Assembly (NCBI GenBank): GCA_016293805.1
Contig: JAEDDI010000002.1
Span: 18,653 to 82,652 of the forward strand
Source: Bacillota bacterium
GTDB taxonomy: Bacteria > Bacillota > Clostridia > Peptostreptococcales > Anaerovoracaceae
DNA: 64,000 nucleotides
Reading direction: 5' to 3'
Made by a program: the position numbers and the translations under genes. The first letter of the stretch is position 1. Every line of letters begins with the position of its first letter. Under the pieces are notes generated by a model. The model had not been told where the DNA came from. It saw only the letters and a list, made by a program, of their open reading frames with translations, and ran no database searches. Positions 2,946 to 35,399 of the stretch are shown here, piece after piece.

Positions 2946-3350
2946 CTACATTCTTCTGCTTTCTATACATTCACCAAGTCCAGCACTGTTCCATGCGTTT
3001 GTCTGACCTGATACTCTTGTTATCTTTCTTACGATAATGTCCGATACGAATCTGTTTTCGGATGCGGCAATCGCTGCTGCTATCACAGCCACAAGTTCCG
3101 CATCATCTGTGGCATCAATCTGTTCCGCTTCTGCAGGCACTGCTGCAGGTGCAGGTGCATCTGCAGGCTTTTCCTTCTTTGCAGAACCGATTGTAACGCT
3201 CATTATCTTGATTACAGCCCACAGGATAATGAGGATTAAAAATGTAATTCCAAGCCCCATGCACATTGTCACTGTGGCTCCGGCAAGTCTTTCTCCCATT
3301 GTAAGGCTTCCAAATGCGCTCGGATTTGCAAACTGTTCCATTAATGACAT
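2946..3350 (-). CDS. OadG-family small membrane subunit (decarboxylase delta/gamma-like)
   Basis: One N-terminal TM helix (GLGITFLILIILWAVIKIM) followed by an Ala/Pro-rich tail. Located between the carboxyltransferase and the biotin carrier. Start refined to ATG 3350 (MSLMEQ...), preceded by a GGGAGGTG SD. Confidence 0.6.
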   Translation of the reverse strand: MSLMEQFANPSAFGSLTMGERLAGATVTMCMGLGITFLILIILWAVIKIMSVTIGSAKKEKPADAPAPAAVPAEAEQIDATDDAELVAVIAAAIAASENRFVSDIIVRKITRVSGQTNAWNSAGLGECIESRRM

Positions 3351-3364
3351 ATCCGGCACCTCCC

Positions 3365-4906
3365 TTAAAGTGGAATGTTACCGTGCTTCTTAGCAGGTAA
3401 TGATAATCTCTTTGAGCTGAGCATTTCAAAAGCGCTGATTACTCTCTGCCTTGTTGATGCAGGCTCTATTATATCATCTACATAGCCTCTCTCTGCTGCT
3501 CTGTACGGATTATTGAATTTCTCTTCGTATTCTGCAATCTTTTCCTGTCTCTTGGATATAGGGTCGTCTGCGCCTGCAATATCCTTCTTGAATACGATAT
3601 TTGCAGCACCCTCTGCGCCCATTACTGCAATCTGCGCTGTAGGCCATGCGAATACGATATCTGCTCCAAGTTCTCTGTTGCACATTCCGATATACGCGCC
3701 GCCATATGCCTTGCGAAGAACAAGTGTAACCTTTGGAACTGTAGCCTCGCAGTATGCATAAAGCATTTTTGCGCCATGTCTTATAATTCCGCCGAATTCC
3801 TGGCCTGTACCCGGAAGGAAACCGGGAACATCTTCGATTGTAAGAAGCGGAGTATTGAATGCGTCACATCTTCTGATAAATCTTGCAGCCTTGTCTGATG
3901 CGTTGATATCAAGACATCCGGCTCCAACCTTAGGCTGGTTTGCGATTACTCCTACTGTTCTTCCTGCAACTCTGATATAGCATGTGATTATATTCTTCGC
4001 ATAATGAGGCATGATGTCAAAAATCTTCCCGTCATCTGCTATTCCTTCGATAACCTTGTACATATCGTATGCCTTGTTAGGATTGTCAGGAATTATTGTC
4101 TCAAAGTCAGGAATCACCCTGTTCACATCATCTGCCGAGAATACCTCAGGCACAAGTTCCATATTGTTTGATGGCAGGTATGAAAGAAGTTCTCTTACCT
4201 GCATAAGGGCATCTCTGTCGTCCTTTGCGAAAAGATGAGCATTTCCGCTGATCTTGTTGTGTGTCATAGCTCCGCCAAGTTCTTCAGCCGATACTTCTTC
4301 TCCTGTAACAGTCTTGATTACTGCAGGTCCTGTGATGAACATCTGCGATGTCTTGTCGACCATTATGATGAAGTCTGTGATTGCCGGAGAATATACAGCT
4401 CCGCCTGCGCAAGGTCCCATGATTACAGAAATCTGAGGGATAACGCCGGATGATATTGTGTTGTTGTAGAATATTTTGCCGAATCCCGAAAGAGCGTTTA
4501 CACCTTCCTGAATTCTTGCTCCACCGGAGTCGTTAAGACCTACGATAGGACATCCCATCTTAAGTGCCATCTGCTGTACCTTAACGATTTTTTCCGCATG
4601 ATATTCACCGAGCGAACCGCCTAATACTGTGAAATCCTGAGCATATGCGTATACAAGCTTTCCGTCAACTGTACCATAGCCTGTAACAACGCCGTCACCT
4701 GTCGCTTCAACATCTGCCATTCCGAAGTTTGTGCATCTGTGTGAAACAAAAACATCGAGCTCAACAAATGACTTCTCATCAAAAAGGACTTCAAGTCTCT
4801 CTCTTGCTGTCAGTTTGCCGCTGTCGTGCTGCTTGTCGATTTTCTTCTGCCCTCCGCCAAGAGCGATTTCCGCTTTTTTCTGACGAAGTTCTTCAAGCTT
4901 ACTCAT
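3365..4906 (-). CDS. methylmalonyl-CoA carboxyltransferase / acyl-CoA carboxylase beta-type (decarboxylase alpha subunit)
   Basis: 513 aa. Typical carboxyltransferase sequence throughout (GGARIQEG, GPCAGGAVYSPA, AWPTAQIAVMG). Confidence 0.9.
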   Translation of the reverse strand: MSKLEELRQKKAEIALGGGQKKIDKQHDSGKLTARERLEVLFDEKSFVELDVFVSHRCTNFGMADVEATGDGVVTGYGTVDGKLVYAYAQDFTVLGGSLGEYHAEKIVKVQQMALKMGCPIVGLNDSGGARIQEGVNALSGFGKIFYNNTISSGVIPQISVIMGPCAGGAVYSPAITDFIIMVDKTSQMFITGPAVIKTVTGEEVSAEELGGAMTHNKISGNAHLFAKDDRDALMQVRELLSYLPSNNMELVPEVFSADDVNRVIPDFETIIPDNPNKAYDMYKVIEGIADDGKIFDIMPHYAKNIITCYIRVAGRTVGVIANQPKVGAGCLDINASDKAARFIRRCDAFNTPLLTIEDVPGFLPGTGQEFGGIIRHGAKMLYAYCEATVPKVTLVLRKAYGGAYIGMCNRELGADIVFAWPTAQIAVMGAEGAANIVFKKDIAGADDPISKRQEKIAEYEEKFNNPYRAAERGYVDDIIEPASTRQRVISAFEMLSSKRLSLPAKKHGNIPL

Positions 4907-29976: not shown

Positions 29977-31959
29977 CTATTCTGTTGTCGAAAGAATTGT
30001 ATCATATTTTTCAATCTGGCTCACCTTCAGTTCACCTGCTGCATTCGGATCAACTTTCTGTTCAAGTGCCAGCAGCGTAGGACTCAGGAAAGTGGTATCA
30101 AGTTTTTCCCCGTCTAAGGTAACATAGCTGTACTGGGTGAAATTCTGCCCCTTGATATAGTATCTGCTTCCAATCTTTACTATTTTGTCAATCCTGATAT
30201 CACGAAGCCCCATCTTCAAATCCGAAGCCTTCCATTCAGTTTCCCCGTATACATAACGCTTTCCGTAAAGCATATCATACCCTAGTGCTTTCAGATTCTT
30301 CTTGTAATCATCATCGTTATAGTAGTTCTGGTTGTATGAGACCAGCGTTCCGCTGTGTATTCCCAGTCTGTCCAGTACATAGGATCCTATCTGGTATGCA
30401 TATACATCGTGGTCTTCCTTCTCCATCTCAAAGTTCGACCAGATTACATACTGCGTCGCATAAAGCGAACCGCTCTTCATATCTTCCGCCTTCATATCGA
30501 GCGCAGGAAGATGGTCTCCGTACATGACAAGAACAACATCCTCGTCAAACTTCTCAAGCTCGGCAGTAAGGTTCTTTACAAAGTTATCCATGCTGTGAAC
30601 CATATTCACATAGTATTCATACTGCCACTTCTGCTCCTGGCTCGGCGCCTCTGTAACCTCTATCTCAGGATTCTGAATAAGCTGCTCTGTCGGATATTTT
30701 CCATGTCCCTCTACAGAAATTGTATATACGTAATCCTTTGTATCTGTAGATGTGAGCGCTTCCATTATCTCACCGATGAGCACATTGTCCTTCGCCCAGT
30801 TTTTAGGAGTTTTCTCTACATTATTCATGTATTCAAGAGCATCAAAATCATCAAATCCAAGATTTGCAAACACTTCATTCCGGTTATAGAATACTGCCCT
30901 GTGATTGTGAATGGCATGTGTTGAATATCCGAGTCTTTTAAGGTCAAAAGGAATACTCTCCATAGTCGTATCCCGAAGTACAGACTTGTACGGATACTCT
31001 CCGGGACCGAAGAATTTGGCGCTCATGCCTGTAATTGCCTCAAACTCCGTATTTGCAGTACCTGCGCCAACTGCAGGTACAATGAAGTACCCCGATGAAC
31101 ATTTATCAACAAGGCTCTTGAAATACGGCGCTGCGGTCTTAGAGGTTTCTATGCATCCGATAAGGTCCGGATCCACAAATGACTCAAGCTGAACAAAAAC
31201 AATATTAGGATGATCCTCTCTGCTTTCCTTCTCAGCAAGTTTATCCATGTTTTCAAGTTCACCGTTTCTGAATATGGACAGTATACTCTCCTCACTGTAA
31301 TCTTTCGGTTTTGAGATTCCTGTATTGAACCAAGTTGTAATGAAACTGTATACCACTCCGTTGTCAGCATATCCCTGTGCCAGGTTGCCAAAAAACGAGT
31401 CAACTATTCCTGCTCTGATACCGCCTGCCCACGAACCAGCTGTTACGGCAGCGATTATGATAAATACTGTGAGATTTCTCTTTATTCTGACTTTCGTCTT
31501 CTTTTTCGGTCCCTTAATGAAAAGGATTACAAATAATGCGGCGACAAGAACAATCCCTGCAGCCAGCATTACAATCTGAACCGTTGTAAGGTAATTGGTC
31601 AGAATTGAAACTCCGTCCTCAAGCATTGCAAGGTCGTTGATTGTGAACGGTGTCATTCTCTTGAGAAGAATAACTCCGTTAACCAGCCCGAGCGCTATCC
31701 AGATGACAGCGAATATTGAGAACACGAACACTCTTCTCCGAAAGAGGCTCGCTATTGAAAGCGTAAGAAATATAACCAGTGTATTTATTATAAATACAAG
31801 CGGACTTGTGAACATGAACACAACAGCCTGTATAAGGGAATGCCTGGCAAACGTCTCTATAAACAGTTCAAGTATCACGGCTGCCGCTGCAGTTACCGAA
31901 AGGCTGTTCACCCACGGTTTCTCTGCCAGTTTATTTATTGTCTCTTTAATCTTACCCAT
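29977..31959 (-). CDS. LTA synthase family protein (membrane-anchored sulfatase-fold)
   Basis: N-terminal TM bundle followed by an extracellular sulfatase-like domain (VQLESF, GTANTEFE, YGDHLP). Start refined to ATG 31959, which overlaps the rsmA stop (ATGGGTAA). Confidence 0.85.
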   Translation of the reverse strand: MGKIKETINKLAEKPWVNSLSVTAAAAVILELFIETFARHSLIQAVVFMFTSPLVFIINTLVIFLTLSIASLFRRRVFVFSIFAVIWIALGLVNGVILLKRMTPFTINDLAMLEDGVSILTNYLTTVQIVMLAAGIVLVAALFVILFIKGPKKKTKVRIKRNLTVFIIIAAVTAGSWAGGIRAGIVDSFFGNLAQGYADNGVVYSFITTWFNTGISKPKDYSEESILSIFRNGELENMDKLAEKESREDHPNIVFVQLESFVDPDLIGCIETSKTAAPYFKSLVDKCSSGYFIVPAVGAGTANTEFEAITGMSAKFFGPGEYPYKSVLRDTTMESIPFDLKRLGYSTHAIHNHRAVFYNRNEVFANLGFDDFDALEYMNNVEKTPKNWAKDNVLIGEIMEALTSTDTKDYVYTISVEGHGKYPTEQLIQNPEIEVTEAPSQEQKWQYEYYVNMVHSMDNFVKNLTAELEKFDEDVVLVMYGDHLPALDMKAEDMKSGSLYATQYVIWSNFEMEKEDHDVYAYQIGSYVLDRLGIHSGTLVSYNQNYYNDDDYKKNLKALGYDMLYGKRYVYGETEWKASDLKMGLRDIRIDKIVKIGSRYYIKGQNFTQYSYVTLDGEKLDTTFLSPTLLALEQKVDPNAAGELKVSQIEKYDTILSTTE

Positions 31960-32821
31960 TAAATCCTCCCTCTGAGATTGCTGAAGAAATGGCAGCAAAC
32001 TCTTCGAGACTGAGTGTCTCTGCTCTGCGAGAACCCTCTATGCCTGTCTCTTCCAAAACCTTCTTTATATCTTCCTTCGCAGTCCCTCCTGCCCCCACAA
32101 GAGAATTGGAGATTGTTTTTCTTCTCTGTCCAAATCCTTTTCTGATGCAGTCAAACAGAACTTTCGTATCTGGAACCTCCACACGCGGTTTTTCAAGTAC
32201 ATCAAACCTCAGCACTGCAGAATCAACCTTTGGACTTGGCACAAAAGCCTCCTTCGGCGCTCTTGCAATCTGTGTCACATCACAGTAATACTGCACCGCA
32301 AGAGATATAGCTCCTGCGTTCTTTGATCCTGCAGGCGCCTTGATTCTGTCTGCAACTTCCTTCTGCATCATACACGTTACAGATGCAGCCGGCACCCTGT
32401 CTTCCAGTATCTTCATTATTATCGGTGTAGTAATGTAATACGGCAGATTGCCGATAATCCTTATATTCGCATAGTCCTTATTTGCCTCAGCAATACCATT
32501 GAGATCAGTTTTCATAATATCCTGATTTATTACATTGAATTTATCATATCCCGAGAGCGTCTCCTGCAGAATCGGAATAAGTCTGGAATCTATCTCAACA
32601 GCTGTCACCGTCGCACCTATGTCAAGAATCTCCTTTGTGAGCACCCCTATGCCCGGACCGATTTCTATGACAAAGTCGTCAGGTCCTATTCCTGAGCCTT
32701 CCACAATTTTTTCAATAATATTTCTGTCCGTAAGAAAATTCTGTCCAAGCGACTTTGCAAACCTGAAATCATGCCTCGTCTTGATATCATTTATTGTCTG
32801 TGATGAATACAGTTTCATCAT
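31952..32821 (-). CDS. rsmA: 16S rRNA (adenine1518/1519-N6)-dimethyltransferase
   Basis: KSLGQNFL and EIGPGIGVLT motifs. Start placed at ATG 32821 (MMKLYSSQTINDIKTRHDFRFAKSLGQNFL). The 17-aa TTG-initiated extension in the track is probably not translated. Confidence 0.9.
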   Translation of the reverse strand: MMKLYSSQTINDIKTRHDFRFAKSLGQNFLTDRNIIEKIVEGSGIGPDDFVIEIGPGIGVLTKEILDIGATVTAVEIDSRLIPILQETLSGYDKFNVINQDIMKTDLNGIAEANKDYANIRIIGNLPYYITTPIIMKILEDRVPAASVTCMMQKEVADRIKAPAGSKNAGAISLAVQYYCDVTQIARAPKEAFVPSPKVDSAVLRFDVLEKPRVEVPDTKVLFDCIRKGFGQRRKTISNSLVGAGGTAKEDIKKVLEETGIEGSRRAETLSLEEFAAISSAISEGGFNG

Positions 32822-32886
32822 ATAGAACGGTCGGAGACCCGTGACTTTAGTCATGGGAGGAGACCGTAGCAATAGAATATTCTAAG

Positions 32887-34137
32887 CTAAGTCCCTTGTG
32901 CGACCTCTCTCCTTTCTGTTAAATATGTTTTTCTCTTCTCCAGTAGCTTAAGCTTTTTATGGCTTACTCCTGCTGAAAGCTTTGTTCCGTCAAGCGTTCT
33001 GATATCAAAGTAACCGTTACTTCTTCTGCCAAAAACGAAACACTCTTTACCTTTATACAACACCTTGTCAAAAAGCTGATATCCAGACACATACCTTGCC
33101 GCCTGGTTATTTTTCCTGTAGCCGCCCTTACTGATGGTCAGCTTATGTATCTGCCTGTTATGGCAGCGTACTTTCTTCTGGTAATAGTACTCCTTTGGAG
33201 GCTCTGCATTTGGATTTCCGCTGATGCATCTTGCGTCTGTGCGATGCGACTTCTCAAGTCCTGCACTGATTCTTGCATGTTTTGTGAGATATCCGTATGT
33301 CATTTTAACTTCAGGATATATTTCTTTAAGCGCCTCATACAGAGCCCATCGCATGACTCCCATAAAGGCGGCATCCCTAAATGACATGCCTCTTTTTATG
33401 GTCTTCGGCAGTTTTACAGTCCCTTGATGATACCCCGTATGGCATGTCTCACATAATGTGATCAGATTGTTTGGTGCATTGCCTCCGGTCCTTCTTGACT
33501 CTATGTGATGCACATTCAGCACTGAATCTTTGCTCTTTCCCATGCAGCACTGGCATGTGTGGCCATCGCGATACAGCACGTATTCCCTCACGTTCCAAAA
33601 GCCAAGCTGCTCGCCCTGCTGGTATTCTTCCCCGGCAATCTCCGGATTCTTAATCTTCAGAATATCAAACTGCGCTGTTTCAACTGTGATTTTGCTTACC
33701 GGAAGAATCTCATGCACATTCTCTATGACTCGAAGGTGTGTCTTTATCTTCTGCTGTACCGACGGGGCAAGCCATCCCTCAGGTCTTCTTCTGTTATCAA
33801 ACCTTGCCTTGCGATACCGGGTCTTTCGGTTTCGACGTGCCCGGCGCAGTTCTCTCCGCCCTGAAAGAAGCTTTACAATATCGTTTCTTAGCTCAACCTC
33901 GGCCTCATAAAGTACCTTATCTTCCGTCGCAGCAGATACTCCTATTACCTTGGAGCCTGCGTCAATCCCAAATGATACCGGCTGAACCTTCTCCTCAGCG
34001 TGATAGTTAAGCTTAATGGTAAACGGACAGCGATTTACTACTTTGGCTTTGCCGCTGCTTAGCATTCGCCTTACCTTGCCGAAACGCTGCGTCGGCATAA
34101 GTGGCTTTCCGTTATCGTTGATTACATATACCGGCAT
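32887..34137 (-). CDS. iscB: IscB-type RNA-guided endonuclease (RuvC + HNH, PLMP N-terminus)
   Basis: 416 aa from ATG 34137 (SD AAGGAGGAG 7 nt upstream). GKPLMPT; GIDAGSKVIGVS (Asp59); RRELRRARRNRKTRYRKARFDNRRRP; ITVETAQFD (Glu153); CQCC...NVHHIESRRTGGNAPNNLITLCETCH; SHRTDA (His298/Asp301); beta-rich C-terminal domain. Confidence 0.9.
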   Translation of the reverse strand: MPVYVINDNGKPLMPTQRFGKVRRMLSSGKAKVVNRCPFTIKLNYHAEEKVQPVSFGIDAGSKVIGVSAATEDKVLYEAEVELRNDIVKLLSGRRELRRARRNRKTRYRKARFDNRRRPEGWLAPSVQQKIKTHLRVIENVHEILPVSKITVETAQFDILKIKNPEIAGEEYQQGEQLGFWNVREYVLYRDGHTCQCCMGKSKDSVLNVHHIESRRTGGNAPNNLITLCETCHTGYHQGTVKLPKTIKRGMSFRDAAFMGVMRWALYEALKEIYPEVKMTYGYLTKHARISAGLEKSHRTDARCISGNPNAEPPKEYYYQKKVRCHNRQIHKLTISKGGYRKNNQAARYVSGYQLFDKVLYKGKECFVFGRRSNGYFDIRTLDGTKLSAGVSHKKLKLLEKRKTYLTERREVAQGT

Positions 34138-34426
34138 AACGTTTCTCCTCCTTAAGTGATTTTTTCTCTTTTGCTGCATTAATGCTGTAAGCCGGATGCA
34201 GCATCCGTAAGTTAGCCTTCGCCAATGTTATTGCAGGGTTTGACGAATGCAACACTGTTCCTACCCTTCAGAACTGTTTAATCACATTCCGTAGAGCACG
34301 GGACTAGGCTATAACATCCCGTGGTACCTATTTCCTGCATAACGTAGTGCTCTTGGCACTTAGGCTAGTCAACTAGGGCTGATAGAGTTTAATGCGCAGC
34401 ATTATTCTTCATACAAGCCCGCGACT
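34138..34426 (-). ncRNA. candidate omega-RNA (guide + scaffold) of IscB. Boundaries are unknown.
   Basis: 289 nt with no ORF of 60 aa or more on either strand, directly 5' of iscB, which is the canonical omega-RNA position. Hand-found helices: GCUGCGCAUUAA (34400..34389) with UUAAUGCAGC (34182..34173); AGAGCAC (34353..34347) with GUGCUCU (34299..34293); CGGAUGC/GCAUCCG around 34192..34206; AGGGU/ACCCU. Confidence 0.6.
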
Positions 34427-34969
34427 TCAGTCGTGGGTAATTGACTTTCCAGCTGCCTCTTCAAATTTTTCTCTTGTGATTCCGTAGCTGTTCAGTTTTC
34501 TCAGGAAAGCCTGAGCATTGCCGTATCCTATTCCAAGATATGACCCTGCTGCCTGACGTTTTTCCCTGGAACCCGGGCCGGTCAGTCCTGTACGTACCAG
34601 ATCATTCATGGTAAATTCATCTTCCTGCACTGCAACCCTTGTACATACTTTCGAAAGAGCCTCGACTATAGCCGCAGGCTCCGCATTTTCAATGCCTATA
34701 TCTCCGTCTTTTATGGCCCTGTCCCTTGTGAGAAAAGCCTCCTTCGCATCCGGATATCTTTTCAGAACCCTTTTTCTTATCTCAAGACCGGCTCTGTCCG
34801 GATCTGTGAATATGATAATACCTTTTGACCTGTAGGCCATATCCATTAAATCCCATGTCTCTTTTCTGATACCGTAGCCGTGAGTTTCGATAGTCTCTGC
34901 TTCACAGGCTCTTTTTACTGCCGCTGTATCATCTCTTCCCTCGACTACAATCACTTCTTTAATTATCAT
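34427..34969 (-). CDS. rnmV: ribonuclease M5 (Toprim domain)
   Basis: IKEVIVVEGRDDTAAVKRA Toprim motif and DPDRAG. Start refined to ATG 34969 (MIIKEV...). Confidence 0.85.
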   Translation of the reverse strand: MIIKEVIVVEGRDDTAAVKRACEAETIETHGYGIRKETWDLMDMAYRSKGIIIFTDPDRAGLEIRKRVLKRYPDAKEAFLTRDRAIKDGDIGIENAEPAAIVEALSKVCTRVAVQEDEFTMNDLVRTGLTGPGSREKRQAAGSYLGIGYGNAQAFLRKLNSYGITREKFEEAAGKSITHD

Positions 34970-35399
34970 CTGAACGTTTTTCCTCATCAGGTGACATATA
35001 AAGAATCTCATCAGGATATACCATGTTGAGTTTCTCTCTCACCTGTTTTTCTATATACTCGGGATCGTTAACATTCTCCAGTTCCTTCTGCTTGCTGCTC
35101 AGAGTCTCCTTCAGTTCCTCCTGCTGCTTTACGAGTTCGTGCTTCTGCTTTTCAAGTCTGACAATATTTACAGACGATAAAGCTATCGCACCTGCAACAA
35201 GGAGAATAATGAGAGCGATAATCACGCGCTTTCTGCTCCTGTTTTTCTGATATCTGCGTTCAGGAGCCTGCTCCATTATCTCTACTGTCTTCTCGGCTGC
35301 CCTGCGGCGCTTCTCCCTGCGCTGCTGACGCGCCTTGTCGAAATCCACAACATTGCTGTTCCTGTTAAATTCCCTGCTTCTGCTTCTTGGTTTTGACAT
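34959..35399 (-). CDS. septum formation initiator (FtsB/DivIC-like) protein
   Basis: 146 aa. Basic N-terminus, one TM (VIIALIILLVAGAIAL), then a coiled coil (LEKQKHELVKQQEELKETL). Confidence 0.6.
   Translation of the reverse strand: MSKPRSRSREFNRNSNVVDFDKARQQRREKRRRAAEKTVEIMEQAPERRYQKNRSRKRVIIALIILLVAGAIALSSVNIVRLEKQKHELVKQQEELKETLSSKQKELENVNDPEYIEKQVREKLNMVYPDEILYMSPDEEKRSDDN

Follow-up and report, generated by a model that had tools for sequence, protein, structure and literature searches.

The window analysed here, a 64,000-nt stretch of a Bacillota metagenome-assembled genome (MAG; 1.77 Mb, 95.6% complete), carries a 1627-bp insertion between rnmV and rsmA that encodes an IscB protein and an omegaRNA on the same minus strand as its neighbours. 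Taken as a whole, the locus is very probably a non-autonomous ISC-type transposon, made up of iscB and its omegaRNA, that is mobilized in trans, transcribed from the host operon and capable of homing. An earlier note, drawn from the letters of the window alone, had proposed a co-oriented OMEGA element inserted between rnmV and rsmA; empty sites in the same species, a HEARO match and the domains of IscB now bear this out. We propose that a Y1 transposase (TnpA) supplied in trans would have placed the element, and that guide, scaffold and iscB would be transcribed from the host ftsB-rnmV operon, as expected for an element whose guide is external to it. Empty alleles would then be cut by the IscB-omegaRNA complex, and repair from an occupied copy would re-install the element (‘cut-and-copy’ homing), converting the adjacent flank too. 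The parts of the element are as follows.

32819..34445, minus strand: whole ISC-type (IS200/IS605 superfamily) IscB-omegaRNA element, 1627 bp, delimited by empty-site contigs
32814..32818, plus strand: target or transposon-adjacent motif (TAM) TTCAT, ATGAA on the gene strand, holding the ancestral rsmA start (32818-32816)
32819..32867, plus strand: transposase-defined left end, a 19-nt spacer and then an imperfect hairpin, from the sequence and its single-stranded DNA fold
34418..34445, plus strand: transposase-defined right end, hairpin CCCGCGAC-TTCA-GTCGTGGG (34418-34437), TAA, then TTGAC, from the sequence
34138..34445, minus strand: omegaRNA scaffold, made up of the HEARO match (34445-34207) and the 3′ hairpins that follow as far as the iscB ribosome-binding site; begins GUCAA
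34461-34446, minus strand: guide segment AAGAGGCAGCTGGAAA, 16 nt of host DNA (rnmV 3′ end), 5′-adjacent to HEARO position 1
289 nt between rnmV and iscB, minus strand: leader, free of open reading frames
34137-32887, minus strand: iscB, 416 amino acids, Pfam RRXRR and HNH

Limits, ends and target motif of the element

The limits 32819-34445 follow from conspecific contigs that read across the empty junction. Six such contigs (L066-L071), which encode a shorter RnmV allele, read GCAGCTGGAAA followed directly by ATGAAAC or, at greater length, AAATTTGAAGAGGCAGCTGGAAA followed by ATGAAACT; their flanks match the window at 98.6-99.7% identity across about 2.9 kb to either side. Compared with the empty site, the occupied one has gained precisely 1627 bp, 5′ of ATGAA, and zero duplicated bases. 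The element lacks terminal inverted repeats, and its placement is exact, as the boundaries cannot slide by even one base. The insertion point is the ATGA formerly shared by the rnmV stop and the rsmA start. Comparison with an uninterrupted junction, which the earlier note had recommended, thus supplied both the ends and the ATGAA target. The size of roughly 1.6 kb given in that note stands, and its limits (32822-34430) do not: the HEARO match already starts 18 nt within the annotated rnmV reading frame, which shows the boundary on that side to be misplaced, and the end upstream of iscB, there called left, is the transposase-defined right end (Meers et al., 10.1101/2023.03.14.532601).

Read on the iscB strand, the element starts with GTCAA and ends with CTATATG, after which comes ATGAA. 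Its last three bases are themselves an ATG (32821-32819), which had been taken for the rsmA start; the ancestral start is the next ATG, at 32818-32816. The 65-nt gap between the iscB stop (32889-32887) and ATG 32821 is as described earlier, and the palindrome reported in it, ACGGTC (32827-32832) and GACCGT (32862-32867) around an inner stem, has exactly the coordinates given. This palindrome is the subterminal transposon-end hairpin of the left end. These arms form its outer stem, CCCGTGAC and GTCATGGG (32838-32845 and 32850-32857) form the inner stem around the loop TTTA, and the predicted single-stranded DNA fold has an energy of -10.8 kcal/mol (z = -3.6). The right end folds with z = -3.9. 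In both end hairpins stem position 4 is a G-T wobble, and the two differ by one compensatory pair, and IscB relatives carry a related left-end hairpin followed by a TYTCC motif. At the right end, the transposon-encoded motif (TEM) TTGAC (34441-34445) departs from the TAM at positions 3 and 5.

Motif-specific insertion without duplication and subterminal hairpins at both ends are the marks of the ISC group of IS200/IS605 elements. ISC transposons were described with a 5′-GTCA terminus and an N/ATGA target (Kapitonov, Makarova and Koonin 2016, PMC4810608); ISC1-1_MA, ISC2-1_MS and others of that study share with our element this terminus, insertion 5′ of ATGA without target duplication, subterminal hairpins and IscB as sole gene. 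Unlike the present element, they come from Cyanobacteria and Proteobacteria, and the study makes no mention of start codons, whereas here three of three insertion sites are start codons.

A close parallel in organization is ISGst5 of Geobacillus stearothermophilus, likewise non-autonomous, of IS200/IS605 type and limited to iscB and omegaRNA. It has subterminal hairpins at both ends, its scaffold is drawn from the right end as the transposase defines it, and its guide falls beyond the boundary. It is co-oriented with its upstream gene and predicted to cut the empty (donor-joint) site, and its IscB, GstIscB, uses the same TAM, TTCAT, with a TEM that differs at positions 3 and 5 (Meers et al., 10.1101/2023.03.14.532601). 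The host here, in contrast, is an uncultured Clostridiales MAG with a single copy and no TnpA found, whereas G. stearothermophilus has many copies and TnpA. The nearest Bacillus homologue that we found is 61% identical to the window IscB.

IscB, omegaRNA and the vacant target

The iscB gene starts 7 nt downstream of a strong Shine-Dalgarno sequence, AAGGAGGAG. Its product matches Pfam RRXRR (224.3 bits) and HNH (32.2 bits) and has the architecture of the IscB class: an N-terminal PLMP domain, the RRXRR or bridge helix, and a split RuvC with HNH inserted. It aligns to the solved OgeuIscB structures (PDB 7XHT, 7UTN and 8CSZ; E = 4.5e-51), with the same domain order and a HEARO-class omegaRNA. 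Catalytic and signature motifs are kept relative to OgeuIscB, namely PLMP(T), the GIDAG aspartate, the RuvC-II glutamate (TVETAQF), the HNH His-His pair (VHHIE) and the RuvC-III H..D (HRTDARC). The two proteins differ in length, 496 amino acids for OgeuIscB against 416 here, and their identity is moderate, with the match falling in two stretches. OgeuIscB uses a TAM different from the one here. Internal stops are absent from all 31 full-length iscB copies, and 21 distinct sequences contain 12 synonymous and 12 non-synonymous variants, a ratio of non-synonymous to synonymous polymorphism (pN/pS) of about 0.28; the reading frame is intact and under purifying selection. One change is private to the window: residue 269 (window 33333 region) is Ala, against Glu in the other 30 full-length copies (ALYEALKE versus ALYEELKE), and lies outside the catalytic motifs.

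The leader holds a full-length match to the HEARO family (Rfam RF02033; 147.7 bits against a gathering score of 83, E = 4.5e-32, model positions 1-211 of 211). It is the one HEARO copy in the genome, and its 3′ end lies 69 nt ahead of the iscB ATG on the same strand, as for a cognate omegaRNA. IscB scaffolds derive from the transposon right end (bioRxiv 10.1101/2023.03.14.532601), and here the scaffold start coincides with the element boundary; the 16-nt guide is therefore host sequence just outside the element. It contains GAGG, the ancestral rsmA Shine-Dalgarno sequence, and congeners have AGAGGA 7 nt ahead of the rsmA ATG.

The empty allele has an exact match to the guide AAGAGGCAGCTGGAAA followed by the ATGAAA TAM. 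The occupied genome has a sole perfect guide match, which is followed by GTCAAT, so that no TAM is present, and no other site in that genome combines three or fewer guide mismatches with ATGAA. Because only the empty allele pairs the protospacer with a TAM, the predicted ribonucleoprotein would be programmed against the vacant site and unable to cut its own locus. This is the arrangement expected under the homing model of Meers et al., in which the guide matches the vacant site, the other flank supplies the TAM and the occupied site is immune. Four contigs with occupied alleles (L077, L080, L084 and L085) carry a T-to-C change in the guide (GCAGCCGGAAA) at the position matching window 34451, six nt from the TAM-proximal end; such guides would mismatch the common empty allele at one position.

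A guide encoded outside the boundary means that transcription must begin outside the element, and iscB shows a strong same-orientation bias with its upstream gene (Meers et al., 10.1101/2023.03.14.532601). Inside the element we found no terminator-like site on the minus strand. Read-through into rsmA and ltaS fits both this terminator-free strand and the published need for outside transcription. A promoter-like sequence, TTGAAA-16-TATAGT (10 of 12 matches), lies within rnmV at 34665-34692 on the minus strand, about 200 nt upstream of the guide, and could drive omegaRNA and iscB independently of the operon promoter; promoter-like matches are no commoner here than in shuffled sequence.

Copies, flanking haplotypes and the source of transposase

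Copies of 1627-1629 bp, at least 99.0% identical and with the same ends, occur at three sites.

Site 1: rnmV/rsmA junction, found on numerous contigs from numerous samples
Site 2: early operon of a prophage, AAGGGGAAGGAACAAACA, element, ATGAAAAAG, ahead of a gene for a 3D-domain protein that has a signal peptide
Site 3: AACGAGGTAAGA, element, ATGAAAGCG, ahead of a gene for a MiaB-like methylthiotransferase

The target motif stands directly outside the boundary at all three, each time reading ATGAAA, and the three sites show past mobility. Site 3 is vacant in the window's own genome (G000), and at site 1 occupied and empty alleles are both common in public assemblies of the same species. The 27-nt left-end sequence has no exact match in IMG/VR or the JGI metagenomes, and a megablast comparison of the element with annotated phages and plasmids returned no match.

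In the window's genome we found no second element copy, solo end, second IscB or second HEARO, with one exception as regards ends. A 6.7-kb contig outside the window (G000 contig C7:1-240) opens with a related hairpin of the ISC-end type, CACGCGACTTTAGTCGTGTG, followed by a promoter-like region and a gene resembling plasmid Rep; the assembly may have broken here at the end of a further element of IS200/IS605 type.

Assembly error is an obvious concern for a repeat within a MAG. Three short metagenome contigs (L087, L101 and L103) run from the rnmV left flank of site 1 by way of the element into the MiaB-like right flank of site 3. L102, also short, is the reciprocal, so assemblers do switch paths inside this repeat. 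These hybrids are probably path switches in strains with two copies, although real recombination between copies could also produce them. The idea that the repeat was misjoined into the operon of this MAG can nonetheless be given almost no weight: more than 20 independent contigs of up to 104 kb, from varied samples and assemblers, share the same rnmV-element-rsmA junctions, and the element is single-copy in this genome.

The flanks of occupied alleles carry a distinctive pattern. Directly beside the element, occupied alleles carry a haplotype that we call B, which diverges by about 10% in rsmA-ltaS. Its tracts are nested and cover 0, 1, 4 (the window), 22, 30, about 64 or the full set of 247 informative sites. 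Next to the junction, the six empty alleles are free of B tracts. Another distinct tract, of at most 70 nt, is common to five occupied alleles on the rnmV side and never occurs in empty ones. In three contigs (L086, L078 and L088) the right flank, corresponding to window 29977-32818, is of the B haplotype, with RsmA differing at 11 of 288 residues, and the rnmV side is about 99.7% identical to the window. B is seen only beside the element. No empty-site version of the B rsmA (288-residue product, from L086) is on record. Nested flank tracts are what repeated homing with co-conversion would be expected to leave; the pattern is compatible with that process and no proof of it.

A rather unlikely alternative is that the same element is now a passive passenger, its IscB and omegaRNA unexpressed or non-cutting, and that the flanks record one introgression from the lineage about 10% divergent followed by ordinary recombination. 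Nested, insertion-anchored tracts are what linkage decay would produce around any introgressed marker, IscB and omegaRNA are known here from sequence alone, and promoter-like matches are no commoner than by chance. A passenger fits less well with an element at least 99% identical at three different start codons, with 31 of 31 iscB frames intact at the pN/pS given above, with a full-length, high-scoring omegaRNA, or with a guide that perfectly matches a common empty allele next to the correct TAM.

The transposase itself was not detected. The earlier note found no TnpA or Y1 gene in the window, and this extends to the whole assembly, in which no Y1 transposase (Y1_Tnp) and no TnpB-type domain (Pfam PF07282) was detected; the search for further copies or a trans-acting tnpA that it had suggested found none in the 95.6% complete assembly. 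Y1 transposases are present in six of seven congeneric species. On one contig with a site-3 copy (L107:160-900), an IS200-type element encoding a 160-amino-acid Y1 TnpA lies 200 bp upstream of the IscB copy, with CCACGCG-TCAAA-CGCGTGG hairpins at both ends, unlike those of the IscB element. Only some 1.5% of iscB genes have a tnpA nearby (Meers et al., 10.1101/2023.03.14.532601), and co-orientation, outside transcription and a missing tnpA are the published normal state of the IscB family.

Several points weigh against a trans-mobilized, operon-transcribed, homing transposon. The candidate for a cognate transposase, the IS200-type tnpA just described, has different hairpins and is not obviously cognate. 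A tnpA could also have been missed at this completeness, as MAGs often lose repeats. One introgression followed by ordinary recombination would leave the same nested tracts with no nuclease involved, and read-through transcription, omegaRNA production and IscB activity are all deduced from the DNA.

The host operon and the cost to rsmA

The minus-strand order is ftsB, rnmV, HEARO/omegaRNA leader, iscB, rsmA and ltaS; the strand of the five genes, as given in the earlier note, is confirmed by reading frames and Pfam domains. The host genes are as follows.

35399-34959, minus strand: ftsB (DivIC/FtsB-like), Pfam DivIC
35011 or 34969 (start) to 34427, minus strand: rnmV (RNase M5), Pfam Toprim and DUF4093
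34427..35011, minus strand: rnmV in the occupied allele, its last six sense codons and stop (34445-34427) inside the element
31952..32818, minus strand: rsmA (KsgA), 288 amino acids, intact, Pfam RrnaAD
Downstream of rsmA, minus strand: ltaS-like gene for a sulfatase-domain protein, Pfam Sulfatase

The ftsB-rnmV-rsmA-ltaS order is kept across the genus and much of the family. The usual adjacency of rnmV and rsmA, assumed in the earlier note, is borne out in 40 related genomes: wherever both genes lie on the fetched locus they abut or overlap, with neither unrelated genes nor, in any of the 40, an IscB gene at the junction.

For rnmV the consequence is a short extension. Its stop (34429-34427) sits in the loop of the right-end hairpin, and the first of the six codons inside the element still encodes the ancestral Lys. 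RnmV of the empty allele (P0007) ends in EEAAGK and that of the occupied allele (P0001) in EEAAGKSITHD, a gain of five residues (SITHD), and the protein collection includes RnmV alleles otherwise identical to that of the window that end in EEAAGK.

For rsmA the larger effect is probably on translation, through loss of its Shine-Dalgarno sequence and of ATGA coupling. In empty-site loci, rnmV (3001-3570, locus coordinates) and rsmA (3567-4433) overlap by 4 nt; in the occupied allele, rsmA is 1627 bp from its own Shine-Dalgarno sequence and from the ATGA stop/start overlap with rnmV. Its in-frame candidate starts are TTG 32872, ATG 32854, ATG 32821 and the ancestral ATG 32818 (32818-32816), which the iscB stop precedes by 14, 32, 65 and 68 nt, respectively. 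None of them has a GGAGG-like motif within 20 nt, in agreement with the earlier statement that rsmA has no recognizable Shine-Dalgarno sequence. The translation of rsmA would now be weak or dependent on re-initiation after iscB, and re-initiation after a well-translated iscB is our best guess for its route. The reading frame is open in 14 of 14 occupied loci (10 full-length), which says little about selection because the insertion is young. The LtaS-like gene retains its own GAGGGAGGA.

Two other ways of starting rsmA were considered and rejected. Gene callers begin the gene at ATG 32854, within the element end, which yields 300 amino acids; as a designed start this fails, since related elements do not keep the 36-nt open extension and have their iscB stop within the hairpin loop, in another frame. 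A replacement ribosome-binding site or folding bridge in the element end fails because the Shine-Dalgarno-like run is too distant: the only strong one, GGAGAGAGG at 32912-32904, lies at least 31 nt from any in-frame start, or about 26 nt with predicted hairpins discounted.

The position of the insertion, in a conserved operon and exactly at a point of translational coupling, together with the frequency of the occupied allele in public assemblies, might suggest a domesticated insertion through which the host uses the element or IscB binding to regulate rsmA and ltaS. We consider this very improbable. The insertion is polymorphic within the species, identical copies sit in a prophage and ahead of an unrelated gene, the guide is merely the flank, as in every IscB element, and none of 24 other same-family genomes searched has an IscB gene.

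The start-codon position may have a more general basis. Three of three insertions fall between the Shine-Dalgarno sequence and the ATG of a co-oriented gene, and the same layout is found in roughly half of the more distant IscB relatives inspected. By a crude count, the genome has 8833 ATGAA sites, and about 343 of them (4%) are probably start codons. Selection against insertions within genes surely contributes to this pattern. It is possible, and we offer it only tentatively, that the flanks record a natural footprint of homing with co-conversion and that ISC elements with an ATGAA target systematically settle between a Shine-Dalgarno sequence and a co-oriented start (three of three against about 4% expected, a crude call), gaining free transcription of the guide while the downstream gene is translated independently of Shine-Dalgarno, for example by re-initiation after iscB.

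How IscB elements are understood to work is unchanged by these findings. What the locus offers is a case in which all parts of such an element can be read, from both ends, TAM, TEM and guide to the empty site and the host cost. Public metagenomes contain both alleles as well as two more insertion sites. The locus makes available a native triple of guide, target and TAM for a compact 416-amino-acid IscB, and a testable case of a gene, rsmA, parted from its Shine-Dalgarno sequence and translational coupling by 1.6 kb.

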